A stretch of DNA of 22,795 nucleotides, from IMG/VR virus record IMGVR_UViG_3300010348_001053. One strand, given 5' to 3'. Under the pieces are notes generated by a model. That model was not told the origin of the DNA and searched no databases. It was given only the letters and a program-made list of their open reading frames with translations. Below, piece after piece: positions 4,794-22,795 of the stretch (position 1 is its first letter; every line of letters starts with the position of its first letter). The translations under genes were made by a program, and so were the position numbers. The DNA is from a virus.

Positions 4794-5288
4794 TTACATG
4801 GTATGCATCGTAACCTGGAATCGAACCGACCAGACATGAAGGATATAATCTCTAACCTGATGATATCCGACCTCTAAAACCGGATTCACGCAGTATGCTT
4901 TAATAGATCGGGTTGTATCTACTTTCCCATCCTCATCAAAATAAATTCCAGATACGGCCTGATTTGAAACGGAAAACAAATCCACTACTGCATATCCGTA
5001 ATTCCGAGTTGTTCTGAGTAAATCAGGGACATTTGCACCTTTATACACTCCCGAAACAATTACACTAAACTCATGTTTTCGAGGAGTATTTGACATGTGT
5101 GTCGTTATTTTGTCTCCTCCTTCTAAAAGAGGAGTGATATAGAAACTTGGAAAAACCCGGATTCCTGCGGGCTGTTCGTCGCCTTCAATCATCCTCATCC
5201 CTGTAGTTCCTCCTAATAATGTGATATTAGTTTCAATCCGGCTTTTCATAGCATCTATGATTGAATTTACGTCTTCAGATGTTGGCAT
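4794..5288 (-). CDS. Probable tail terminator / tail completion protein (164 aa)
   Basis: Position after the neck genes; lambda gpU / SPP1 gp17-like pattern (N-terminal helix, P.F.I strand, C-terminal HVWSVRFQV strand); SD GGAGG. Confidence 0.55.
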   Translation of the reverse strand: MPTSEDVNSIIDAMKSRIETNITLLGGTTGMRMIEGDEQPAGIRVFPSFYITPLLEGGDKITTHMSNTPRKHEFSVIVSGVYKGANVPDLLRTTRNYGYAVVDLFSVSNQAVSGIYFDEDGKVDTTRSIKAYCVNPVLEVGYHQVRDYILHVWSVRFQVTMHTM

Positions 5289-7291: not shown

Positions 7292-8584
7292 TCACACAGT
7301 GATACCGAACACGCCACCCTGGAGAGAACTGGTTCCGTCAACATCAGACTTGTCGATCAAAGTCTCAGCGAATGAGATAGTAAACCGCTTGGTCGGGTTG
7401 GTGCTTGGTGCAAGTTCAGTGAATACCTCAGGATAGAGGACACGGTACTTGAGATAGTTCAGGTCCAGAAGGAAGAAAGACCCATTTGCTCCGGTCGTGG
7501 TCGGAAGGTAGATAGATGGAACTACCGGCACCTTACCGGATCCGGGGAGATTGATGGTGATGTTCTCAATACCGTAATCCTGGTCAGACTTCTGCTGATA
7601 CCGGATGTATTCCTCCATACCAATCGTGATGATATTGTAGGTGGAATAGTCACAGATTGCGACGTTTGGCACAAGACCGTCCTGCATCATCTTCCGGTTT
7701 GAGTCCTTGATGAGCGGCTTGAGTTCGTCCCAGGTATCGACACCTGCATCTGCGGTCTCGTAGTTAGGGTCGTCAGTGTTGTTGTGGATGAGCTCGTAGA
7801 GACCGGGGTACTCATACTGACCGGCCGGAGTGAATGCCGGGTCTGCGGTATATGTAGAGGTGACACCGAGGGTTCTTCGTTCCCTGAGCTGCTTGAGCAT
7901 TTCAGTGTGAGCGAGAAGCTCGATAGACATCAGGTCACGGGCCGGCACCTGGGCCATGCCTGCGTACTGTGCAAACTGAGTTACCGCTGCGGTGGTCCAT
8001 GCGATCTTGATATCTGCGGTTCGCCGCTTTGGATCCATGTCGGATTCGACAAGGTTCGGTGATTCAGGACCGAATGAAGCGCTACCTGCTCCACCCGCCG
8101 GGATAGCATCCCAGAGAGCGACTGCACCGGGATTTGGTTCTTTGCCGATGAGAGCCTGGACCGGGAGCGGACGCATGAACAGACTGGTGATCTGCTGGTC
8201 GTAGATGGAATGCATCAGGTTTGAGCTGGAGTCTGCTGCCTTCTTGATCTCGTCTTCAGATACTCCTACCTTTGAGAGTGATGCTTTCCGAATCTCGTTC
8301 AGACCGTCAACATACTTCACCTTGGCGGCTTCGATGTCGTTGGTAAACCCGCTCATAGAGTATCCCGGATTCAGGATAGCCTTCTTGATAAGGTTCGGAT
8401 CAATTGCATCTACCACAACGCCTGATACAGCGGTCTGAAGTCCGTTTGCCTGTGCCTGTGCAATGGACTGAGCCATTGACTTCTTGATCTCGTAGAGATT
8501 GACGTCAGTCTGTGCATTGCCAAGGTTACCCCAGAATGCCTGACCGAGAGCCACATCTTCTTTAGTTGCGTGTCTTCCTGCCAT
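7292..8584 (-). CDS. Major capsid protein precursor (HK97 fold expected; 430 aa from the preferred start)
   Basis: Follows the prohead protease; size; GLYELI and GKVPVVPSIYLP-type motifs; GGAGG SD favours ATG at 8584 over 8596; N-terminal ~116 aa helical with four IxK[AS] motifs (probable propeptide). Confidence 0.85.
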   Translation of the reverse strand: MAGRHATKEDVALGQAFWGNLGNAQTDVNLYEIKKSMAQSIAQAQANGLQTAVSGVVVDAIDPNLIKKAILNPGYSMSGFTNDIEAAKVKYVDGLNEIRKASLSKVGVSEDEIKKAADSSSNLMHSIYDQQITSLFMRPLPVQALIGKEPNPGAVALWDAIPAGGAGSASFGPESPNLVESDMDPKRRTADIKIAWTTAAVTQFAQYAGMAQVPARDLMSIELLAHTEMLKQLRERRTLGVTSTYTADPAFTPAGQYEYPGLYELIHNNTDDPNYETADAGVDTWDELKPLIKDSNRKMMQDGLVPNVAICDYSTYNIITIGMEEYIRYQQKSDQDYGIENITINLPGSGKVPVVPSIYLPTTTGANGSFFLLDLNYLKYRVLYPEVFTELAPSTNPTKRFTISFAETLIDKSDVDGTSSLQGGVFGITV

Positions 8585-8595
8585 AGTTTCCTCCA

Positions 8596-9828
8596 TCAGA
8601 ACTGACCGGCCATGAGTAGTGCCGGGTTCGTGTCACCGGACGGAGATTCCGGAGTTTTTGCCTTCTGTACAATATCTTCAGACTTGACAAGGGTCTGATC
8701 CACGATGACCTTCCGGTCCCTGGGTTTCGTCTCTTCAAGTTCCAGAACCGCTTTCCGGAGAATGTCGTTATCTTCCCGGAGCTGCTGGATGGTATCATTG
8801 AGTTCTGGAATTGAGGCTATTGCTTTGCGGATCTCTTCAGGGAGGTCTGGGAACGCTTTCTTGATTGCACATCCCTTTTCTACCTCTTCCTCTTCAGGAT
8901 CCTCATCATCCTCATATCCGTCATCAGGATACTCTTCTTCCTCATCCTCAAGCTCTGCTTTCTGGACTTCATCGCCGCCGCCCATCTGGTCCTTAAGCTC
9001 CTGGAGCTCCTGGAGGACCATTGTCAGCCCTTCGGCAATTGTGGATACCTGATCCTGGATATCGGGACCATTATCCTCATATTCCGCATCGCCGTAATCC
9101 TCATCGGCCTTCTCGATATCATCCGGCTCGACGCTGGTCATTTCCTCAACAGCCTGTTCGAGTGCGGACAATCTCTCTGATAGAGAGGTAAGGGCACCTA
9201 CAACCTGCTGTTCAAAGTCATTTCCAGTAGGAGCGGATTCGGCTGGTGCGTCTGTAGTATCAACCATGTCGATTTTCTCCATACTACCGTCTGCCGTTTC
9301 ATGAACGGGGGCAGAATCGGAATTCATAGATTTTACAACGATGCCCTTCACGATTTCAACAAAAGTGGACGGATTTATGGCATTACCCGCCGGACACACG
9401 GATATTGAGTCTAAATGCAATTTTAATGTCTTACATGGCTCATTCCGTCTATCCGGATGAATTTTGCAGGACTTTGATCCTTCGACTCGTCGCCCATAGA
9501 TACTGTACTGAGCCAGTTCACCGGACTTGATCCGGGACCAGACATCATCACAATCATCTGTATTTTTGATAGTTCCCTGAATCATCAGGGCACCATCCGG
9601 GTTCATAGTCGCGGACGTGACAAGACCGATGGGTCGTTCTGTGTGGTCCAAATGCAATACCGGTAATGCCATGAAGTTATCAAGTGCGTCTGCTACTGCA
9701 GATGACAAGACCAGTTCATTTTCCCGGTCCACCTGCGGGATAGAGGCACAACCTCTGATTACCCGCTGGTCTCCTTCCTCCGCCCAGGATAAATCCATTG
9801 TGAGGATAGGAGTCTCGAAATCAGACAT
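8596..9828 (-). CDS. Prohead (maturation) protease, HK97/S78-like, with acidic scaffold-like C-terminal extension (410 aa)
   Basis: RVIRGCAS...DRENE...LHLDH...PIG...YSIYG...ISVCP..AINP with candidate catalytic His and Ser; D/E-rich C-terminal half; promoter motif 33 nt upstream. Confidence 0.9.
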   Translation of the reverse strand: MSDFETPILTMDLSWAEEGDQRVIRGCASIPQVDRENELVLSSAVADALDNFMALPVLHLDHTERPIGLVTSATMNPDGALMIQGTIKNTDDCDDVWSRIKSGELAQYSIYGRRVEGSKSCKIHPDRRNEPCKTLKLHLDSISVCPAGNAINPSTFVEIVKGIVVKSMNSDSAPVHETADGSMEKIDMVDTTDAPAESAPTGNDFEQQVVGALTSLSERLSALEQAVEEMTSVEPDDIEKADEDYGDAEYEDNGPDIQDQVSTIAEGLTMVLQELQELKDQMGGGDEVQKAELEDEEEEYPDDGYEDDEDPEEEEVEKGCAIKKAFPDLPEEIRKAIASIPELNDTIQQLREDNDILRKAVLELEETKPRDRKVIVDQTLVKSEDIVQKAKTPESPSGDTNPALLMAGQF

Positions 9829-10432: not shown

Positions 10433-11509
10433 ATGCAGAGATCAGTAACGATCTGGATCCCGAAATCAGACGATTTAGTGGATACTATCGTTCAGTATAA
10501 CTCTGCATGTAACGATTGTTTGAAATGGGGATTTGGAAATAAGACTTATAACAAGTCGAAAATTCACAAAGCAACATACGAAGATATTAGAACCAGATAT
10601 CCAGATCTCCAATCTTCTTTAGTATGTGCTGCAAGAGATCAAGCAGCAGATATGCTAAAGCGGGAAAAACTCAAACGGTTTCCGAAAAAGAAGACATTTT
10701 CAGGCATTCGATATAACGCTCGTACAATATCTGTATCTGCAGATGGATCAAAAGTATCTCTCTCAACTATTGCAGGAAGATACAGATTTGATCTGAATAT
10801 CCCCAAATATTTTCAGAAGTATGGAACAGGAAAACTCTGTGCAGCAACCATGTCTTGTCAGAACGATAAGATTAAACTGGTCCTGAATTTCGAGTTTAAT
10901 CCGATTCAGAAATGTGAAAATTCAAAAGTATTGGGGATAGATAGAGGAATCATTAATCCGGTTGTTACTTCCGATAACGGTTTTTTTAACTCGAAAAAAC
11001 TTCGATCAGTGAAAGGAAGATATCAGTACCAGAGAAGGAAACTTCAACAGAAAGGCACTCGATCTGCAAAACGAAGATTAAAACAGATCTCGCAGAAAGA
11101 GACTCGGTTTGTAACTGATATGAATCACTGTATAAGCAAACAGATCGCAGATTCCGATTTTGGAATATTTGTTCTTGAGAAACTGGAAATAAAACGATCC
11201 AAGAAAGTGGGGAAGAAGTTCAATCGCAAACTGGGTAACTGGTCGTTTGCTCAATTCTCAAAATTGCTTGAGTATAAAGCAGAAGATAGGGGTAAGATCG
11301 TAATCTATATAGATCCAAGATACACTTCTCAAAAATGTTCAGTTTGTGGAAACACTGAAAAATCTAACCGAAAAGGATCAAAATTTATCTGTAAAAAATG
11401 TCAGTTTTCTCTTAATGCCGATCTGAATGCTGCTAGAAACATTGCTCAATTGGGTATATCTCAAATGAGTAGGCTGCTTGTCAACCAGCCAACCGTAGCG
11501 TCCTGTTAA
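10433..11509 (+). CDS. tnpB: RNA-guided endonuclease TnpB (358 aa)
   Basis: RuvC residues GIDRG / VLEKL / NADLNAARNI; zinc finger CSVC...CKKC. Confidence 0.95.
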   Translation: MQRSVTIWIPKSDDLVDTIVQYNSACNDCLKWGFGNKTYNKSKIHKATYEDIRTRYPDLQSSLVCAARDQAADMLKREKLKRFPKKKTFSGIRYNARTISVSADGSKVSLSTIAGRYRFDLNIPKYFQKYGTGKLCAATMSCQNDKIKLVLNFEFNPIQKCENSKVLGIDRGIINPVVTSDNGFFNSKKLRSVKGRYQYQRRKLQQKGTRSAKRRLKQISQKETRFVTDMNHCISKQIADSDFGIFVLEKLEIKRSKKVGKKFNRKLGNWSFAQFSKLLEYKAEDRGKIVIYIDPRYTSQKCSVCGNTEKSNRKGSKFICKKCQFSLNADLNAARNIAQLGISQMSRLLVNQPTVASC

Positions 11510-13790: not shown

Positions 13791-16331
13791 CTAGTTTAAC
13801 TTATCCAGAACCTGTTTGATGATCTGGTCTGCCCGGTGCCACCGGTCATGCAGATACGGGTTCTGAACAAAGGCTTTAGCGCCTTTCTGACCTGCCCGCC
13901 GGATATTCTCTTCTGCGTCGTTGAACATCCGCTTCCCGTCATCAATCGCCCGGTCAGCTTCCAAGGGTCTTCCTGCCTTCTTGTATGCCTCCCGGATGGA
14001 ATTCGATATCCGGCCAAGAGACTCGCGGATCTGTTGCGGATGACCAAGACGGTTAAACCATTCCCGCTCATCCCTGGTGGCAACCTTCCCGCCGAAATCC
14101 TCGTTTAGTGAATCCTCTAACTCCTTATGGCTCATCTGGGTATCTATCCACCAATGTTTGCTCTCCGGGTTCCATCGTCCCTTATACTTCTGTTTGAGAA
14201 CGTCTGCCATCTGCGGAGAAGTGTTCCCGACATAGAACCGGTTGATGGGAGCACTTTTTATCTTCTGTGCTTCTCCTGCATCGGTGACGGTCTGGATCTT
14301 CTCGTCCTGTTTCTTCTTGCTCTCTTCCAGATGCTTCTCAAATTTTTCCCGCGGTATCTCCGGGGTGTATCGTTTGATAAACATCGCGTGCTCTCCTTCC
14401 GGTATGGTCGTGACCTTCCCATCCTTGACGTGAAACATCTTATGGGTATCTGAATTCTTTGAACCGGTTGCACCATGATATAACCCGTCTGGTAAGTCGA
14501 AATGCCGTTGCCCGTCTGATGATTCGGTTGGTTGCAACAACTCACCAATATTCTCATGAGTCGCTCCAGGAACATGACCGTCGATGCGTCGTACCCATGT
14601 CCGCCAAGTGTTGTGAGCCGGGAGAGAAACCCGTGCAGTTTTTGGTGTGTCTACCGGTGTATTCTTTGACCGATGCTGAACATCATAAACGGTATGTTTA
14701 CCGTGCTTCTTCTCAACAATTCTTACTTCCCGCCCCTTTGCCTCTAACTCTTCCTTTCTCTTCTGTGCGGCTTCCGGAGTGGTTGTCTGGTATTTTGTAA
14801 CAAACGGTTTTTCTTTCTTCTGGACCGGTTCTTTCTCAACAGGTGCTTTTTCAGGTTGTGGTGCCTGTTGTTCAACTGGTTTCTTCTCAACCGGTCCCTG
14901 GGGTTTCTTCCGGTATCTCACCCGGATGATATGACCCTTATCTGCCTGCCATTCGTTTTGTAAAACTTCTGCTTCATGCCCGGCCGACTGCATCGCTGCC
15001 ATTGCCGCACCGGCAACCCTGGGATCCTTGTAGGTTGTTTCAGTCCATTCGCCTGCATTCTGTTCAGGTTCTTTCACCGGTTCTTTCTCAACCTTCTTCG
15101 CCTGCACCGGGGGGAGTTTCGGACCTTCAAGCTTTACCGGTTGTTTCATCAGCCGGGTTAATTTGTGCATGGCGTAGCGGTACGAATCGGATAACCGCTG
15201 CCTGCCGTTCCCGTGAAAACTGGTCCCTGACCGGGCTGCATCCTGAATCATCTCATCCGGAGCGTCCGGGAAATGTTTCTTCAGATGACCAGATAAGAAA
15301 TCTTTCACCGGAGTGTCACCGCGTTTGTGTTGCATCGCGGTTTCTTCGTTCTCTATCTCTTCCACCTTTCCCGGCTGGTTCATCCGGGCATCAAGCATAC
15401 TCCGAAGAAACACGTTCGGATCCGGTTTGAACTCCGGTATGTCCAGGGTCTTCTTCTGACTCTTCCCCGCGTCGATAAGTTCCCGGAGAGTAGTATGGAT
15501 ATCCCAGAGCGGATTCTTTGCCAGAGGTTTTGGTTTCTTACCGGCTGCAACCTCTTCAGCCTTCTTCTGATCCCGGTCTTGCATCTGCTGAATGAGAAAG
15601 TTCCTGCGCCGGGGACCGGATGATCGGTATAAATCACCGACCAGATCCTTCAGGTTTCCAATGTTCTTTACCCGGCTCTTCTCATGGTCTATATCCTCCG
15701 CTGACTGGTCCCCCCACACTTTGTCATAGGAGTACGTGACCTTGTTTCTTGCGCCGTTCTTGTCAATGTGGTAAAGTTTCGCCCCGTGGGATCCGGACGG
15801 ATGGATCTCATACCGTCCATTCTCTACATATTTCCCTTTGACGTAATCATACGCCGGAGCGGAGTGGATACCGTCTTTCTCAGTAAACTCTGGTTTCTCT
15901 ATGTCGGTTGTTGGTATCCATTTGTTCCGGGCCGCGTATTTTGCCTTGTCCGCCGCCTGCTTGTCGGTTATCTTCTTCTGGGTCTTATCGCCGTAATTGA
16001 CGTAAATATTGTAGAGGTTCTTTCCAGCCTCGTTCTTCTCCAGGTTCGGTTTATGGACGAAATGAACCGATGCAGCGCCCTGGGCTTTGAACTTCTCTTC
16101 TATCTCTTTGAACTGGTCCTGTGTTACTCCACGCGACCTGACAAGTTCGTGGTGCTGACCGTTCTGTTTGACATGCTTATCCTCGACAAAATAGTATATT
16201 CCGCCGTTCGGTCCTTTATGGAGCTGAACACCTTTCGGTGGTGTCTGACCTCGTTTGACGTATTTCTTGCCCTTTTGGATGATGCTGAATCGAGCGTTGA
16301 TGATTGACCGGAGGGTATCCCAGATACTCAT
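13791..16331 (-). CDS. Large K/E/P-rich multidomain protein (846 aa), putative virion-internal/polyvalent protein
   Basis: Long ORF with promoter motif 31 nt upstream; shares its N-terminal motif with 20061-21695 and 21739-22473; late segment KQKYKGRWNPESKHWW resembles the DUF5710/HARP-like pattern. Confidence 0.75.
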   Translation of the reverse strand: MSIWDTLRSIINARFSIIQKGKKYVKRGQTPPKGVQLHKGPNGGIYYFVEDKHVKQNGQHHELVRSRGVTQDQFKEIEEKFKAQGAASVHFVHKPNLEKNEAGKNLYNIYVNYGDKTQKKITDKQAADKAKYAARNKWIPTTDIEKPEFTEKDGIHSAPAYDYVKGKYVENGRYEIHPSGSHGAKLYHIDKNGARNKVTYSYDKVWGDQSAEDIDHEKSRVKNIGNLKDLVGDLYRSSGPRRRNFLIQQMQDRDQKKAEEVAAGKKPKPLAKNPLWDIHTTLRELIDAGKSQKKTLDIPEFKPDPNVFLRSMLDARMNQPGKVEEIENEETAMQHKRGDTPVKDFLSGHLKKHFPDAPDEMIQDAARSGTSFHGNGRQRLSDSYRYAMHKLTRLMKQPVKLEGPKLPPVQAKKVEKEPVKEPEQNAGEWTETTYKDPRVAGAAMAAMQSAGHEAEVLQNEWQADKGHIIRVRYRKKPQGPVEKKPVEQQAPQPEKAPVEKEPVQKKEKPFVTKYQTTTPEAAQKRKEELEAKGREVRIVEKKHGKHTVYDVQHRSKNTPVDTPKTARVSLPAHNTWRTWVRRIDGHVPGATHENIGELLQPTESSDGQRHFDLPDGLYHGATGSKNSDTHKMFHVKDGKVTTIPEGEHAMFIKRYTPEIPREKFEKHLEESKKKQDEKIQTVTDAGEAQKIKSAPINRFYVGNTSPQMADVLKQKYKGRWNPESKHWWIDTQMSHKELEDSLNEDFGGKVATRDEREWFNRLGHPQQIRESLGRISNSIREAYKKAGRPLEADRAIDDGKRMFNDAEENIRRAGQKGAKAFVQNPYLHDRWHRADQIIKQVLDKLN

Positions 16332-18043: not shown

Positions 18044-19247
18044 ATCAATAACCAACAACTAAACCGTTGGCTTGCACTTCAAATTCTCTTTCGAGCAGAG
18101 TGCTATAGGCTGATTGACAACAGCCCTTTGAGCAATGTTTTTAGCAGCATTAATGTCAGCATTTTCAGTATGTCCACATTCCAAACATACAAATTCAGAT
18201 TGGGATTTGCGGTTATTCTTATCGATATATCCACAAACGGAACACTGCCTAGACGTGTTTTGTGGATCAACCAGATGAACAAGAACTCCTGCTAATTTAG
18301 ACTTATACTGGATGAACTGACTTAACTCTCCAAATGCCCATTTTGAATGTTCTTCACGCTGCTCCTTTCTAACAGTTACTTTGTCCCTGATCCCTGAAAG
18401 GTCTTCTATAGCAATAGATGACAAAGTGCCTTTCGCAAGTTGAACAACATTCTTTGAGACACAATGATTCTGGTCTTTTTTGAATCTCCGTTCTCTTTTG
18501 GATAGTTTCTTGAGATGTTTCTTAGCATCCCAAGTTCCTACTGATTGAAGTTTCCCTTTGATCTTCTGATACTTTCTGCGAACCTTTTTACACAGATCTC
18601 CTGAAAATACCTGACCTTCAGAAGTTGTTGCAAGGTTCACAATTCCCAGATCAATTCCAATTACCTTGTCTGAATTAATTGGTTCATCTTCTGGAACATC
18701 GCAGACGATCAGAAGATAAAACTGTTTGTCACGATAAACTAAATCTACCTGACCTTTTACACGTTCAAGATCTAATTCTCTGTAATTACCACAGACGAAG
18801 TTAATCTTCTCCCGTTTCTCAAGAGTCAGGATAGATACGATATCCATTGATTTGAAGGTTAGGTTCCTCTGATCGTATTGAATTGCTCCATGAGGGTTGA
18901 ACTCATGTTGAACCTTTTTATCAACCTTATACGATTCAGAAACCTTCCCTATGGCTCTGACAACCATCTGGGCAGATAACCCAAACTTTTCCTTCACATC
19001 GTAATAAACAAGTTTATGTAATCCTATCTTACCAAATGTTCTGAACTCAAAAGCAACTTCTGAAATATAATTGCAAGATGCGTTGTATTGTTCCATCGTT
19101 TTAAGCAAAATCGCCCTTTGCTCATCATTAGGAACTAACTTCAACTGCAATGTCAGAAGCATATATTGATCTATGTATTCAATACAGATAATACTTATGC
19201 AGCATTCCTCCTACCCCTAAAAGAGTGGGCCTCCTGCTGCAATTATC
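18044..19247 (-). mobile_element. IS200/IS605-family element, tnpB-only (IS1341-like), non-autonomous
   Basis: Left end GCAGCAG-GAGG-CCCACTC-TTTTAG-GGGTAGG...TGCTGC; guide GAGG predicts target TCxC, matched by TCAC at 19251-19248. Right end CAAG-CCAACGGTTTAGTTGTTGG-TTA-TTGAT. Confidence 0.88.
18059..19162 (-). CDS. tnpB: RNA-guided endonuclease TnpB (367 aa)
   Basis: N-terminal HTH (LKLVPNDEQ...L), RuvC GIDLG / IAIEDL / NADINAAKNI, zinc finger CSVC...CLEC. Confidence 0.95.
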   Translation of the reverse strand: MLLTLQLKLVPNDEQRAILLKTMEQYNASCNYISEVAFEFRTFGKIGLHKLVYYDVKEKFGLSAQMVVRAIGKVSESYKVDKKVQHEFNPHGAIQYDQRNLTFKSMDIVSILTLEKREKINFVCGNYRELDLERVKGQVDLVYRDKQFYLLIVCDVPEDEPINSDKVIGIDLGIVNLATTSEGQVFSGDLCKKVRRKYQKIKGKLQSVGTWDAKKHLKKLSKRERRFKKDQNHCVSKNVVQLAKGTLSSIAIEDLSGIRDKVTVRKEQREEHSKWAFGELSQFIQYKSKLAGVLVHLVDPQNTSRQCSVCGYIDKNNRKSQSEFVCLECGHTENADINAAKNIAQRAVVNQPIALCSKENLKCKPTV

Positions 19248-19402: not shown

Positions 19403-19422
19403 GAGATAATATACAGGAATTA
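19403..19422 (-). promoter_or_regulatory. Viral promoter motif upstream of a structured non-coding segment
   Basis: TAATTCCTGTATATTATCTC; nearest ATG (19385) gives only a 5-aa ORF. Confidence 0.6.
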
Positions 19423-20064
19423 CGTGTCGAGTTTTCCATAGATTTTGTGACATCCCATTGCCATGTATTCAAGGCATGCTTCATCATCTCCGCGGACTTC
19501 GCACCGTTCCTGCGCCTGGATACACTGATAATGATCGGCTCGTTGTTTTACTTCTTTCTTGTCCTTCTGCCGGTATGAATATCCTAACTGCTGTGCAACA
19601 TTCGCCCTATTCTCCCGGTAGTTCAGGGTCTTGTCTATCAGGGATGATACATCGTATGATTCCGGGTCAAGTCCGGCATTGACCATATCCTGTTTAATGC
19701 GTAACTCAGTGAGTGAATGGGCGGAAGTTTTGGTCTTTGCCCGCTGTTTCTTCACCGATGCTTCTTTCTTCTCCGGATAATACCACTCGTCACCGGCCTG
19801 GAGAATTGTATTCAGTGTCGATTCATACATCCCCTGGTTCTCCATGTCATATCCCGGTTGTTTCTGGATCTGGTTTCGTCTCCGGGTGATAGCACGTTTG
19901 AACGAATCGATTGATTTAGACCGGTTGAGCGTGCTTTCCATGTCATCAAGAGCTCTGGTAACGTCTGCTTTTTGTTCATCAGATAGTTTGCTGACGTTCG
20001 GATGGTTGATCGTGAAATCCCGGAGCCTGGATAAAGAGGGTTTATCCTGGTCCGGGGACTTCAG
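19420..20064 (-). CDS. 214-aa -1 frameshift extension of 20061-21695 (ORF track shows only 173 aa from an internal Met)
   Basis: The frame of 19420-19941 is open upstream through the slippery site: LKSPDQDKPSLSRLRDFTINHPNVSKLSDEQKADVTRALDDMESTL...; no SD or promoter motif before 19941. Confidence 0.75.
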   Translation of the reverse strand: MKSPDQDKPSLSRLRDFTINHPNVSKLSDEQKADVTRALDDMESTLNRSKSIDSFKRAITRRRNQIQKQPGYDMENQGMYESTLNTILQAGDEWYYPEKKEASVKKQRAKTKTSAHSLTELRIKQDMVNAGLDPESYDVSSLIDKTLNYRENRANVAQQLGYSYRQKDKKEVKQRADHYQCIQAQERCEVRGDDEACLEYMAMGCHKIYGKLDT

Positions 20065-20070
20065 TTTTTT
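20013..20070 (-). promoter_or_regulatory. -1 ribosomal frameshift signal: A_AAA_AAC heptamer plus 51-nt stem-loop
   Basis: Heptamer at 20070-20064 in the correct phase immediately before TGA; hairpin TGAAGTCCCCGGA-CC-A-GGATAAA-CCCTC-TTTATCC-A-GG-C-TCCGGGATTTCA at 20063-20013. Confidence 0.75.
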
Positions 20071-21695
20071 GTGTCTAACCGGTTCTGACTTAGTCGGTCC
20101 TGCCGGGTCTTCTTCTCGGCTATCTCTTTGATCTTCTGCCGGGTATCCACACCGAATTCAGCGACTGACTCTTTTGCTTTCTTCTTCTCGGTCTGACCTA
20201 ACCCGGTTGCAATCTTCTTCTGGTCCGGGTCGTGGCGTTTGTCGCCAGCTAATTCAGGATACTGTTTTGCTATCTCTTTTTGCTTCGTCTCTTCTTTCTC
20301 TGGAAGGTCATATGAAAGTTCATACCAGTAATCCGTTGAATTGCCACTATCAGGGTTTCCTCCCCGAATCTGTTTTTCAAGTTTAACATTCCGATAACCA
20401 TCAGCCTCTAATCTTTTTGCATAGATATGTGCTTCAAGTTGAGAGAAATTCTTCAACCGTTCTTTCTTCCGTTCCCCGGATGATGCTTGTTTGTCACCGG
20501 AGGAGAACGGTTTGTCTTCAGTCCCTGGTGTGCTGATTGTTCTGACATGCCCTAAATCACCTTGTTTATTCACCTGTTCCAGCACGTCTACATATTTTCC
20601 ATGCTCGATTGATAACCGGTTAACGTTCTGTTCTAATTTACTTGCAGGGACCGTTTCACCGGTACTGGTAAGGTATGAGTCTCCTGATCGTGCAAATACT
20701 AACCGGTCAATATTCTTCTCCTTGTTACTTGCAATGTGCTTATCTATTGCTTGCTGTGCTGCCGGGGATGAGGGTTTTGTTTTCTGCTCATTCATCTTGT
20801 CAGAGACACCCTGAATTATTGCATCGCTCCCTTTCTCCTTCCGCTCTGTGGCTAACCTGATTGCTTCTGCCTTTGCTTCAGTCTTATTGAATAATTGTTT
20901 TCCTCTTGAACCCCTTCTTATACCCTCTCTTATTTTTATATCATAGACTAAAGTCTCATTTGTATCCGGATCAGTGACCTCCACCCGCTGAAACTCATTA
21001 CCGCTCCATCCGATAGTATATCGTATCCCCAACTTTGCGGTTAATCCGGGCTGCTGTGTTTTCGTTTCCTTCTGTCTCCGGACCGTTGCTTTCTGGTCCT
21101 TTACCTGACTGACCGGTTTCTCTTCAGGGACTTTTATCCGTAGTTTCGTCTTGCGTTCTGGTTGATGCTCTGGATACTCTTCCGGATGAGTTACTTCTTT
21201 CCATGCCTGTATTGTGGATTTCTTTTCCGGGGTTGTAGAAGTCTTCTCTTTCTTCTCCCCGCCTTTGAATCCTGCCACCATCCGCTTCAGTTCTTTGATA
21301 TCCGTGTGCTTCCCCAGGAATTTTACATCGCCATCTTTCCCCTCAAAGGTCAGATGATGTTCTCCATCCTTTGACTCTATCCGATATGCACCGGGACCGT
21401 GTTCTCCCTCCTTCGTCCGATGCATGACTGAACCATCCTCCTGTTTCCGGAACGCCGGTAGTCGCTTCTTCTTCTCCCCACTCTCTTCTTCCTTCTTCGG
21501 AGCCTCTTTCTTCTTTGACTCCTTAACTGCCTTTAAATCTTCAGTGTTGTAATACATCCCCTTCCGTGGTCCGGTATGGATCTGAACTCCTGCCGGGGGT
21601 TTCTGACCTGGTTTCAGATACTTCTTTGCTTTGCTGATAACCGATGACCGTGCTGATATATCCCTGAGCTTGAGCAACATCAGATAGTGACTCAT
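20061..21695 (-). CDS. K/E-rich putative virion-internal protein (544 aa short form; 758 aa with frameshift)
   Basis: Preferred start MSHYLMLLKLR at 21695 (promoter motif 31 nt upstream; parallels MSYYLTLLKLR of the neighbour). The ORF-track start at 21857 lies inside the previous gene. Confidence 0.8.
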   Translation of the reverse strand: MSHYLMLLKLRDISARSSVISKAKKYLKPGQKPPAGVQIHTGPRKGMYYNTEDLKAVKESKKKEAPKKEEESGEKKKRLPAFRKQEDGSVMHRTKEGEHGPGAYRIESKDGEHHLTFEGKDGDVKFLGKHTDIKELKRMVAGFKGGEKKEKTSTTPEKKSTIQAWKEVTHPEEYPEHQPERKTKLRIKVPEEKPVSQVKDQKATVRRQKETKTQQPGLTAKLGIRYTIGWSGNEFQRVEVTDPDTNETLVYDIKIREGIRRGSRGKQLFNKTEAKAEAIRLATERKEKGSDAIIQGVSDKMNEQKTKPSSPAAQQAIDKHIASNKEKNIDRLVFARSGDSYLTSTGETVPASKLEQNVNRLSIEHGKYVDVLEQVNKQGDLGHVRTISTPGTEDKPFSSGDKQASSGERKKERLKNFSQLEAHIYAKRLEADGYRNVKLEKQIRGGNPDSGNSTDYWYELSYDLPEKEETKQKEIAKQYPELAGDKRHDPDQKKIATGLGQTEKKKAKESVAEFGVDTRQKIKEIAEKKTRQDRLSQNRLDTKN

Positions 21696-21738: not shown

Positions 21739-22473
21739 CTAACTGGTATGGAAGTCTTCCCTCTTCCACCCTTTTCTCTTCCGTGGGGATCTATGTCCCT
21801 TGGTTGTTTTGGATGACATTGTGGTATACTTTGTCCCGCGTGAAAATTTATCCACATATCCTCGTTCTATTGCTCTGACAATACGTTCTCTGTATCGATT
21901 TTTGCCGGGAATATTTTTCTTATTTGGACCGTTCACAAGTTGTTTAAAAGCGTTTTTATGAGTTAAATCCCGTGGGTCTTTCAGGTGTTCGCGTCTTCCT
22001 CTAGGTTTTGAGAGTGACCCGATAACCATTGACGGGAACGTCCACCCATGCCCCATATCAGACTCATTCAAGTCTTTGAATACCTTATTGATATCTTGTC
22101 TGACCTGATGAACGGTCTTCCCTTCTGAATTTTCAAGGATCTTCTTTACTTTCGGTAAAGACCTCTCAATGTTCCGGATATGAGTATACGCTTCCTTTGT
22201 CTGCCCTATCTCATCCAGAATATACTGTTTTGCAAACGCTGCAATATTATCTAGTTCTGAATAGGTTTCTGCAATATCGATCTCATCATACGCATGTTTT
22301 GGAGAATGGGACCGGGTATCATAATACACTCCACCATTTGGTCCTCGTGATAGCACAATACCTTTTGGTGGTTTCTCACCCGGACAAAGATACACCCGAC
22401 TTTTCTGAACAATCTCAATCGGTTTATGCGAGATAATCTCACGTAACTTGAGTAACGTTAAATAATAACTCAT
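21739..22473 (-). CDS. Putative virion-internal protein (244 aa) with the shared N-terminal motif
   Basis: ATGA overlap with the upstream gene; VQKS-RVYLCPGEKPPKGIVLSRGPNGGVYY motif. Confidence 0.75.
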   Translation of the reverse strand: MSYYLTLLKLREIISHKPIEIVQKSRVYLCPGEKPPKGIVLSRGPNGGVYYDTRSHSPKHAYDEIDIAETYSELDNIAAFAKQYILDEIGQTKEAYTHIRNIERSLPKVKKILENSEGKTVHQVRQDINKVFKDLNESDMGHGWTFPSMVIGSLSKPRGRREHLKDPRDLTHKNAFKQLVNGPNKKNIPGKNRYRERIVRAIERGYVDKFSRGTKYTTMSSKTTKGHRSPRKRKGWKREDFHTS

Positions 22474-22795
22474 TCTGTCACCAGATGGATATACACATCT
22501 AATCGTTTATTCTGACCCGCTGACCGGTGAGACTTTCCTTTCCTCACAATCGCTTTCTGAACCGGAGCGGATGCCTGTTGCATTCCCTGAATGGTATCGG
22601 TCCCTGAATACGATTCTGCGTCTCCCTCCATACCCATACCGTTATCCGGTCCCTGATCCTGGTCCTGACCGCCCCCCATCATCCCGCCGAACATAGCTGA
22701 TAGAGAAGTCTGGTTCTCCAGTCCCTCTAACTCTTCGGTCTCGTTGGTCGATAAATCGTCACCGAGTTCTGATATCTTCGCGGCAAGTTTCGGCT
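22470..22795 (-). CDS. C-terminal end of a larger protein, probably the portal (partial)
   Basis: Frame stays open to the window edge (PKLAAKISELGDDLSTNETEELEG...MFGGMMGGGQDQDQG...VQKAIVRKG); a low-complexity acidic/Gly-Met tail at the head of the head module is typical of portal tails. Identity rests on position only. Confidence 0.45.
   Translation of the reverse strand, partial: PKLAAKISELGDDLSTNETEELEGLENQTSLSAMFGGMMGGGQDQDQGPDNGMGMEGDAESYSGTDTIQGMQQASAPVQKAIVRKGKSHRSAGQNKRLDVYIHLVTE

Follow-up and report, generated by a model that had tools for sequence, protein, structure and literature searches.

In an uncultivated tailed virus of anaerobic digesters, a gene encoded directly after that for the portal very probably uses a programmed -1 ribosomal frameshift to join two reading frames, so that both a 544-aa and a 758-aa protein would be made, as judged from comparison with its relatives. 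The sequence-only reading had proposed a shift at A_AAA_AAC with a 3' hairpin and these same two isoforms, and the relatives give this strong support: the heptamer is kept, the stop codon beside it varies, the frame under selection switches, and the first 41 codons of the -1 frame are free of start codons. In the window, i.e. the whole analysed stretch of 22,795 nucleotides, the elements of the gene and its signal are the following.

21695 to 20061 (20061..21695), minus strand: 0-frame ORF, the putative short isoform of 544 aa, with its ATG at 21695
20064..20070, minus strand: slippery heptamer A_AAA_AAC, in phase with the 0 frame
20061..20063, minus strand: 0-frame stop TGA, adjoining the heptamer
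20019..20056, minus strand: conserved core stem-loop, in the RNAalifold consensus a stem of 15 bp (6+2+7) capped by a loop of 5 nt, which begins 7 nt 3' of the heptamer
20013..20063, minus strand: extended hairpin of 21 bp, specific to the window, the lower 5-6 pairs not being conserved in relatives
19420..20064, minus strand: -1 frame ORF, 214 codons plus TAA, which we read as translatable solely by extension of the upstream ORF
19765..20064, minus strand: first predicted helical domain, residues 1-100 of the extension, AF2 pLDDT about 90
19423..19731, minus strand: second predicted helical domain, residues 112-214 of the extension, whose four invariant Cys are encoded from 19524 to 19450

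The minus strand reads ...GAC ACA AAA AAC TGA, i.e. the 544-aa ORF does carry an in-phase A_AAA_AAC right before its stop, as had been noticed in the window alone. Six distinct split sequences were compared, all from independent assemblies: the window (with L008, which is identical at the junction), L003, L004, L005, L006 and L009. The upstream proteins of these relatives are 63-91% identical to that of the window. The heptamer is unchanged in every one of them, L008 included, and the A run is A6 in every split locus. Nucleotides -11 to +7 around the heptamer are invariant, whereas the stop and the spacer vary; the 0-frame stop is TAG in L005, TAA in L006, and TGG followed by TAA in L003, L004 and L009. 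As a chance control, we considered all window ORFs of at least 100 codons with an alternative frame that continues for at least 100 codons, and among these an in-phase X_XXY_YYZ beside a stop occurs at this junction only. One other heptamer appeared, AAATTTG, located 85 nt before the stop at 14260, in a stop-to-stop frame nested in an 846-aa ORF. No upstream SD-like stimulator is evident at the heptamer.

The structure that follows was originally described as a 51-nt hairpin of 21 bp at 20063-20013. It folds as described, with -25.9 kcal/mol and z = -5.07, and none of 200 shuffled sequences folds as well, but conservation extends over the upper 15 bp only. The single-sequence folds across the split loci range from -14.3 to -25.9 kcal/mol (z -2.3 to -5.1). 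The 7-nt spacing of the core stem falls inside the 5-9 nt between heptamer and structure quoted for -1 signals (PMC8211752). Only four nucleotides of the core stem vary among seven sequences. One pair changes from G-C to G-U, and two are broken by single changes. L005 has a broken G-C pair, and its fold is weakened to -14.3 kcal/mol. Compensatory double changes occur at none of the 15 stem pairs, as the sequences, 92% identical here, are too close. The stem also codes for the conserved peptide PDQDKPSLSRLR, therefore its conservation could partly stem from the protein. In the distant in-frame homologue L007, no significant structure is found from about 16 nt after the A run onward (5030-5110; z = 0.41). 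Rfam has no family at the site, and a complement to the loop CCCUC, which would allow a pseudoknot, was not seen by eye in the 80 nt downstream. We also considered the hairpin as a terminator and rejected this, since it lacks a following T-run and no minus-strand terminator was called at this place by the scan.

An A-rich site could also act during transcription, with the polymerase adding an A in the A6 run so that some A7 mRNAs encode the fusion and the ribosome reads on unshifted. In favour of this, the site is a homopolymer. Polymerase slippage usually needs runs of 7-9 or more, and A6 is shorter than that; the conserved phase of the heptamer, the adjoining stop and the hairpin at 7 nt suit a ribosomal signal instead. 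Also in favour of slippage, the homologous position in L007 holds an A9 tract that keeps this homologue in frame, and A9 is a slippage-prone length, for example in Thermus dnaX (reviewed in PMC5009743). In a metatranscriptome library, one contig crosses the A6 run without an insertion or deletion, which argues weakly against slippage as contigs drop rare variants; the contigs of the RNA-labelled runs X15 and X17 span only short parts of the stretch. Taken together we regard transcriptional slippage as very unlikely.

The codon differences between the split loci show which frame is coding on either side of the heptamer. Upstream (-74 to +7) there are 59 synonymous and 5 non-synonymous differences in the 0 frame, compared with 0 and 58 in the -1 frame. 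Downstream (+6 to +132) the -1 frame has 208 synonymous and 142 non-synonymous differences, and the other two frames have 35/306 and 12/326. By these counts, the frame under selection switches at the heptamer. Synonymous variation is also suppressed across the heptamer and the stem in these alignments: of the codons with an invariant amino acid, 3 of 13 vary synonymously there, whereas farther downstream 41 of 55 do so (Fisher p = 0.0009). L005 narrows down the place of the shift: its -1 frame opens no earlier than -24, so that only 31 nt, with the heptamer among them, are left for it.

The -1 frame is indeed open without a stop for 214 residues, from the CTG at 20064 to the TAA at 19422-19420. 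If the frames are joined, the junction reads ...LDTKN/LKSPDQDK and the long product has 758 aa. In all six split loci, 129 nt follow the heptamer before this frame reaches an ATG, GTG or TTG.

This bears on the possibility of two separate genes, where translation of the downstream ORF would begin by itself, at its first AUG (19941) or some non-canonical codon, without any fusion being made. Gene callers do annotate the downstream part as ORFs of 141-274 aa started at internal ATGs, and elsewhere the domain with four Cys is found as a small stand-alone protein of about 150 aa with its own start. Nevertheless, two genes are very unlikely: purifying selection acts in the -1 frame on the 41 codons that lead from the heptamer to the first AUG, these codons hold no ATG, GTG or TTG in any split locus, the CTG at +6 is replaced by CTA in two loci, and the homologous residues sit inside the continuous proteins P0012 and P0015. 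With a ribosomal shift as the preferred reading, the annotation would be misleading, as gene callers split one gene and start its downstream part wrongly at internal ATGs.

That the split is a frameshift mutation, a pseudogene or a homopolymer assembly error in a gene whose true or ancestral form is one ORF is extremely unlikely: relatives with a continuous ORF exist, but the identical split recurs in all six distinct sequences and their independent assemblies, contigs from two more DNA studies continue over the junction and its A6 run without gaps, the stretch or part of it is present in 20 of the 24 listed public runs (from 14 studies), both ORFs are under purifying selection, the stop codon has been replaced several times, and what sets the fused relative apart is a net 4-nt deletion upstream rather than a base in the A run.

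The relatives with a continuous long product are P0012 (in L001, L002 and L010) and P0015 (in L007). In the P0012 lineage the deletion that fused the frames lies about 40 nt upstream of the junction, and the old 0-frame peptide and its stop persist in another frame. The sequence-only reading had named continuous homologues with an extra base in 20064-20157, the mark of a simple indel, as evidence against a shift; of the continuous homologues found, none has an extra base at the site, and the fusions are either the upstream deletion or the distant in-frame form. The existence of both in-frame forms, the one with the 4-nt deletion and the one with A9, means that the long product is a real protein. 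L001, a hard-wired fusion, retains the heptamer and the stem, so that, judging by this sequence, both can persist without a need for frameshifting; its fusion may be recent, hence the retention. No fused form above 609 aa was found. Divergent split loci were not found when viral and genome contigs were searched with the single protein, an alignment-based search returned only near-identical or already known loci, and a DNA pattern scan of viral contigs gave only the known UViG. The contig of one divergent relative, L011 (P0058), ends 65 nt before the ATG, which places the junction outside the contig.

The surroundings of the gene give some indication of its role. The gene order is portal, a 244-aa ORF, and then the split gene, which consists of the 544-aa ORF and the -1 ORF. 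The relevant features are:

22473..22793, minus strand: C-terminus of the portal protein, which shares 84% identity with the end of the PF04860 portal in L004
21546..21695, minus strand: N-terminal module of about 50 aa, which also opens two other ORFs of the window, one of 846 aa at 16331 and one of 244 aa at 22473
7292-8596: MCP gene, separate from the split gene
1-2166: tape measure gene, about 17 kb from the shift site

When the N-terminal module is aligned to its paralogues and homologues, 16 columns are invariant, including K-Y...G..P.G....GP...YY, and this backs the start at 21695. According to the AF2 model, the 544-aa protein would be modular, with small folded domains and long charged disordered linkers between them. 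The mean pLDDT is 55 and most of the model has low confidence, with folded islands at about residues 21-60, 90-145, 215-290 and 410-478; the last 64 residues are predicted to be disordered. Pfam and PHROG contain no family for the 544-aa ORF, and a feature search of the ESM Atlas with this part gave nothing usable. Its structure matches in PDB and BFVD have TM-scores of at most 0.11 and were discarded as meaningless.

The extension is modelled with confidence by AF2 as two helical domains. The first is duplicated in tandem in L004 and L005, according to the alignment. The second contains the pattern C-x6-C-x8-C-x7-C that had been pointed out before, at residues 181, 188, 197 and 205 of the -1 part, and the four Cys are invariant in 13 aligned homologues. 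This domain is also part of a 675-aa protein that another virus contig encodes in the region behind its portal gene. Neither Pfam nor PHROG has a family for the -1 ORF, none was found at E <= 0.01 for P0001, P0002, P0004, P0012 and P0015, and a PDB sequence search with the extension profile found nothing. The AF2 model of the extension has no match above noise in PDB (Foldseek) or the ESM Atlas. The 4-Cys helical domain is possibly previously undescribed, and possibly metal-binding. A MuF or SPP1 gp7-like minor head protein (PF04233) was considered and rejected, since there is neither a profile nor a fold match and the genomic position alone is similar.

The host of the virus is probably a methanogen, an archaeal host being indicated solely by homologues binned into a Methanobacteriota MAG. 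A tblastn search with the MCP against isolated phages and archaeal viruses gave no match.

From these observations we infer that the slippage is ribosomal and what the two isoforms might do. Most ribosomes on the post-portal gene would read ...ACA AAA AAC and terminate at the adjoining stop, giving the 544-aa product. A fraction would pause with AAA in the P site and AAC in the A site, when the 15-bp hairpin, 7 nt downstream, is at the mRNA entrance. The Lys and Asn tRNAs would then slip one base back onto AAA AAA, and decoding would resume at CUG in the -1 frame. The resulting 758-aa protein would gain the two helical domains, the second with its four conserved Cys. Most likely it is a head-associated, possibly packaged protein that carries a C-terminal payload at sub-stoichiometric amounts. 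The head-associated role is proposed only because of the position directly after the portal gene and the N-terminal module common to two neighbour genes. Both isoforms are probably used.

A further step, which is possible but rather doubtful, would be to see the site as a toggle that sets the ratio of short to long forms of a head-associated protein. Three states would then exist, i.e. the frameshift, the long form made by the 4-nt deletion and the A9 in-frame form, and the extension would deliver the 4-Cys domain sub-stoichiometrically, perhaps into the capsid. By analogy with dnaX, a -1 slip in the A9 state may yield the short form. To our knowledge, the class of gene to which the split gene belongs is not known for recoding, and the toggle, if true, would have no precedent known to us among post-portal or packaged proteins as a case of recoding. 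It would also offer a ready-made canonical cassette for -1 frameshifting on methanogen ribosomes. This cassette is compact, 60 nt, and bears on whether archaeal ribosomes obey bacterial and eukaryotic stimulators.

Among known systems, the virus gene resembles fucA1, the alpha-L-fucosidase gene of Sulfolobus (Saccharolobus) solfataricus, in having an archaeal poly-A -1 site, two ORFs that are joined, and in-frame relatives. The fucA1 heptamer is reportedly A_AAA_AAT and thus nearly that of the virus gene, in which the Z base is C and the stop adjoins the heptamer. fucA1 is, moreover, a crenarchaeal cellular enzyme of which the fused product alone is known to be functional. In the part of PMC8211752 drawn on here, fucA1 is described as an archaeal -1 frameshift with a poly-A slippery heptamer and a putative downstream stem-loop, where two ORFs are joined into one functional protein and relatives have full-length in-frame homologues.

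The tail assembly chaperones G/GT of tailed viruses, including those of the haloarchaeal viruses HCTV-1, HCTV-2, HCTV-5 and HVTV-1, likewise use a -1 shift in a gene of the structural module to make a short and a C-terminally extended isoform. Their site is flanked by the genes for tail tube and tape measure, unlike the site here directly after the portal gene. We rejected a G/GT gene as the identity of the split gene, as the position does not fit and the proteins are unrelated by Pfam and PHROG. In phage T7, gene 10A/10B uses a -1 frameshift in a head gene to make a minor, C-terminally extended isoform. T7 gene 10 encodes the major capsid protein and its extension is short, whereas here the MCP is separate and the extension has 214 aa with two folded domains.

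The heptamer itself is that of IS1, where A_AAA_AAC fuses the upstream insA ORF to the -1 ORF insB'. IS1 differs in encoding a bacterial IS transposase; no transposase domain was found in the split gene, and the TnpB genes of the window are separate insertions of the IS200/605 type. E. coli dnaX (tau/gamma) combines a heptamer with a 3' hairpin and makes two products with a common N-terminus. In dnaX the shifted product is the short one, the heptamer is A_AAA_AAG, helped by an SD-like stimulator upstream of it, and the protein belongs to an unrelated family. The relatives of dnaX differ in their use of a ribosomal shift, of transcriptional slippage at an A-run or of neither, which resembles the split, fused and A9 states found here (PMC5009743, which also cites the frameshifting use in IS1).

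In a 2021 review (PMC8211752), experimentally demonstrated -1 frameshifting in archaea amounts to one case, fucA1, plus predicted tail chaperones of haloarchaeal viruses. The sequence-only reading, which had stressed the rarity of such signals in archaea, somewhat overstated the novelty: a shift at A_AAA_AAC had already been put forward for the tail chaperone of HCTV-2, and one at A_AAA_AAR for the Methanococcus Mg chelatase (PMC5009743). To these the present locus adds a comparatively well-supported canonical signal of heptamer and hairpin in a virus of anaerobic-digester archaea. The signal is of the textbook type; what is unusual is the gene that carries it and a domain of life with few documented cases.

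The 0-frame ORF on the minus strand (ATG at 21695, 544 aa) ends with the codons GAC ACA AAA AAC TGA. Sequence and translation agree with the sequence-only reading, which had described an in-phase A_AAA_AAC heptamer before the stop and an open -1 frame of 214 codons. The junction consists of:

20070-20064, minus strand: slippery heptamer A_AAA_AAC, in phase with the 0-frame ORF
20063-20061, minus strand: 0-frame stop TGA, directly after the heptamer
20064 to the TAA at 19422-19420, minus strand: -1 frame ORF, 214 residues, stop-free

Tandem slippage would join the frames at ...LDTKN/LKSPDQDK and give a 758-aa product alongside the 544-aa product. The chance control took in every window ORF of at least 100 codons with an alternative frame continuing for at least 100 codons. 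Among these, an in-phase X_XXY_YYZ heptamer beside the stop is unique to the junction of the 544-aa ORF; the sole other heptamer belongs to a frame nested in the 846-aa ORF, 85 nt ahead of that frame's stop.

Used as a protein query, the 544-aa product identified 15 relatives. Four of these, P0004 to P0007, are 63-91% identical over the matched parts and all terminate at the same ...RLDTKN. Two more, P0012 and P0015, are continuous proteins that span the C-terminal end of the upstream ORF and the entire downstream ORF. For the junction comparison we used the DNA of all these relatives and of two further near-identical copies from other metagenomes. The sequence ACAAAAAAC is identical in the window and in the related contigs L003, L004, L005, L006, L008 and L009. 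The stop that ends the 0 frame varies: the window and L008 have TGA, L005 has TAG, L006 has TAA, and L003, L004 and L009 have TGG followed by TAA. In all split loci the -1 frame is open for at least 214 codons (in L005 up to the end of its short contig), with no ATG, GTG or TTG before 129 nt after the heptamer. In L005 it is open only from 24 nt before the heptamer, and the frame change therefore lies within about 31 nt including the heptamer.

The database entries P0003, P0004 and P0005 finish in ...TKNW. In L003 and L004 the terminal W is a genuine TGG codon ahead of TAA; in the entry that matches the window exactly, the source pipeline appears to have rendered the terminal TGA as Trp.

Of 24 listed public runs, 20 contain all or part of the stretch; they come from 14 digester and wastewater studies. 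The A6 run is crossed gap-free by contigs from two DNA studies, both carrying the TGG-TAA variant, and by a 159-nt contig from a metatranscriptome library. Rare A7 transcripts could escape such contigs, and transcriptional slippage at the A6 run therefore stays a minor rival. Six adenines are short for such a mechanism, and a ribosomal signal better fits the phase, the stop next to the heptamer and the hairpin 3' of it. A genuine ribosomal -1 frameshift at A_AAA_AAC is, in our judgement, highly probable.

The frame under selection was followed by counting codon differences, summed over sequence pairs. In the 81 nt ending with the heptamer, the 0 frame has 59 differences that are synonymous and 5 that are not, and the -1 frame 0 and 58. 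In the 126 nt from +6 (relative to the heptamer), the -1 frame has 208 synonymous and 142 non-synonymous differences, and the other two frames 35/306 and 12/326. Synonymous changes in the 0 frame end at codon -11 and those in the -1 frame begin at +6, so the selected frame switches exactly across the heptamer. Judged by this selection, the 41 codons preceding any possible start codon of the -1 ORF are in all likelihood translated, which makes independent initiation of the downstream ORF, and also decay, very unlikely.

The hairpin of 21 bp proposed from the sequence is present at 20063-20013 and folds (51 nt, 21 pairs, -25.9 kcal/mol, z = -5.07, none of 200 shuffles as stable), but its lower 5-6 pairs are specific to the window. 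RNAalifold gives a consensus stem of 15 bp (6+2+7 pairs, 5-nt loop) at window 20056-20019, which starts 7 nt after the heptamer in every sequence. This falls inside the 5-9 nt quoted for -1 signals in PMC8211752.

The aligned sequences have no variable nucleotides from -11 to +7, the stop and spacer (+8 to +13) vary freely, and from +14 to +52 there are just four variable sites across seven sequences, beyond which variation resumes. Among codons with an invariant amino acid, synonymous variation is seen in 3 of 13 in the heptamer and stem versus 41 of 55 further downstream (Fisher p = 0.0009). Compensatory double changes are absent from the stem pairs, which differ by one G-C to G-U replacement and two single-pair breaks; the fold in L005 reaches only -14.3 kcal/mol, and the stem sequence doubles as code for a conserved peptide. 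The case for the predicted stem therefore rests on its position and on suppressed synonymous variation, not on covariation. In L007, which carries a distant in-frame homologue, no significant fold was found at 5030-5110, starting about 16 nt past the A-run (z = 0.41). No Rfam family matches the frameshift site, and there is no T-run 3' of the hairpin.

A 21-nt purine-rich patch at 20116-20136 (-66 to -46), CAGAAGATCAAAGAGATAGCC, is invariant in six of six split sequences; it is coding, with synonymous variation on its flanks. It lies too far upstream of the heptamer to be an SD-like stimulator.

The continuous protein P0012 is found on three contigs, L001, L002 and the 75-kb UViG L010. Relative to the split form, these have lost a net 4 nt some 40 nt upstream of the heptamer (L001:6890-6900, L002, L010), and the protein follows the window's -1 frame for 17 codons ahead of the site. 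The former 0-frame peptide ...RQDRLSQNRLDTKNW and its stop are still readable in another frame, and the stem and heptamer are kept, the latter now out of phase. The long form appears to have been hard-wired here recently. P0015, encoded on L007, is more distant (44% identity over the downstream part). Its sequence corresponds to the 0-frame peptide as far as the homologous point and stays in frame through an A9 tract:

L007:5003-5017: ACG AAA AAA AAA GAT, homologue of window ~20064-20075

A -1 slip here would hit a stop within a few codons, so the long form would be the default and slippage could yield a short isoform, opposite to the arrangement in the window. By sequence comparison, the continuous forms P0012 and P0015 establish the long product as a genuine protein. 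The sequence-only reading would have taken a continuous homologue with an extra base at the site as a sign of a simple indel or assembly error; what was found instead is an upstream 4-nt deletion in P0012 and an in-frame A9 tract in P0015.

Searches of Pfam, PHROGs and PDB sequences gave no match for the 544-aa part or the extension. An N-terminal module of about 50 residues (motif K-Y..G..P.G....GP.GG.YY) opens three window ORFs:

21546-21695: 544-aa ORF
16182-16331: 846-aa ORF
22324-22473: 244-aa ORF

Since the module is shared, 21695 is confirmed as the start of the 544-aa ORF; the module is a candidate for a common targeting or assembly signal. In L006 the module heads a second gene too, for a 401-aa DUF3560-containing protein upstream of the portal. 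According to the AF2 model, the 544-aa part consists of small folded domains with long, charged, disordered linkers between them, its last 64 residues, shift site included, are disordered, and a structural search with it gave no credible match. In two DNA studies, contigs skip 252 nt (84 codons, in frame) at window 20236-20489 of the upstream ORF, and P0005 and P0006 are also without an internal block in this region. The linker-domain units appear to be gained and lost as cassettes.

The 214-aa extension is modelled confidently by AF2 (pLDDT 82) as two helical domains, and its model has no match in PDB or Atlas. The first domain is tandemly duplicated in L004 (5551-5950), where the extension reaches 347 aa, and in L005 (1803-1910), where it is cut by the contig end. 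The second domain carries the expected C-x6-C-x8-C-x7-C pattern (residues 181, 188, 197 and 205 of the -1 part). Among 1.84 billion representatives, a profile search detected this four-cysteine domain in 41 proteins, mostly stand-alone, about 150 aa long and with the domain at the start; one, of 675 aa, is in the post-portal region of another virus contig. Two features, position and the shared N-terminal module, suggest that the gene product may be a head-internal protein.

The genes of the window make up the structural module of a tailed virus or provirus:

1-2166: tape measure protein
7292-8596: SU10-type major capsid protein
8596-9828: head maturation protease
10433-11509, plus strand: TnpB (IS200/605)
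18059-19162, minus strand: TnpB (IS200/605), about 250 nt downstream of the stop of the -1 ORF
22473-22793: portal C-terminus, with 84% identity to the final part of a PF04860 portal on a related contig

The portal end gives the gene order portal, 244-aa ORF, gene studied, also seen in related contigs. In L007 an ADP-ribosyltransferase-like protein (PF03496, 1529-2401) directly follows the portal, in the same post-portal region as the frameshifted gene. Both TnpB genes are inserted within the structural module, and L001 and L007 have TnpB elsewhere. The homologues come from anaerobic-digester and wastewater metagenomes. Two of these homologues belong to the bin "Euryarchaeota archaeon ADurb.Bin294" (Methanobacteriota), which makes an archaeal host likely.

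The signal is a textbook cassette for programmed -1 ribosomal frameshifting. IS1 has the same A_AAA_AAC shift site, and the heptamers of the archaeal precedents are almost the same, with A_AAA_AAT in fucA1 of S. solfataricus. PMC8211752 gives fucA1 as the only archaeal -1 frameshift shown experimentally. For the tail chaperone of HCTV-2 the proposed site is A_AAA_AAC, and for the Methanococcus Mg chelatase it is A_AAA_AAR (PMC5009743); several retroviruses use A_AAA_AAC (retroviral cases are mentioned in PMC5009743). We found no frameshift in a post-portal gene in the literature searched, though one may have been described before. The gene described here is post-portal and unrelated to tail chaperones; the new elements are this gene, the host group and the occurrence of three alternative states at a single site.
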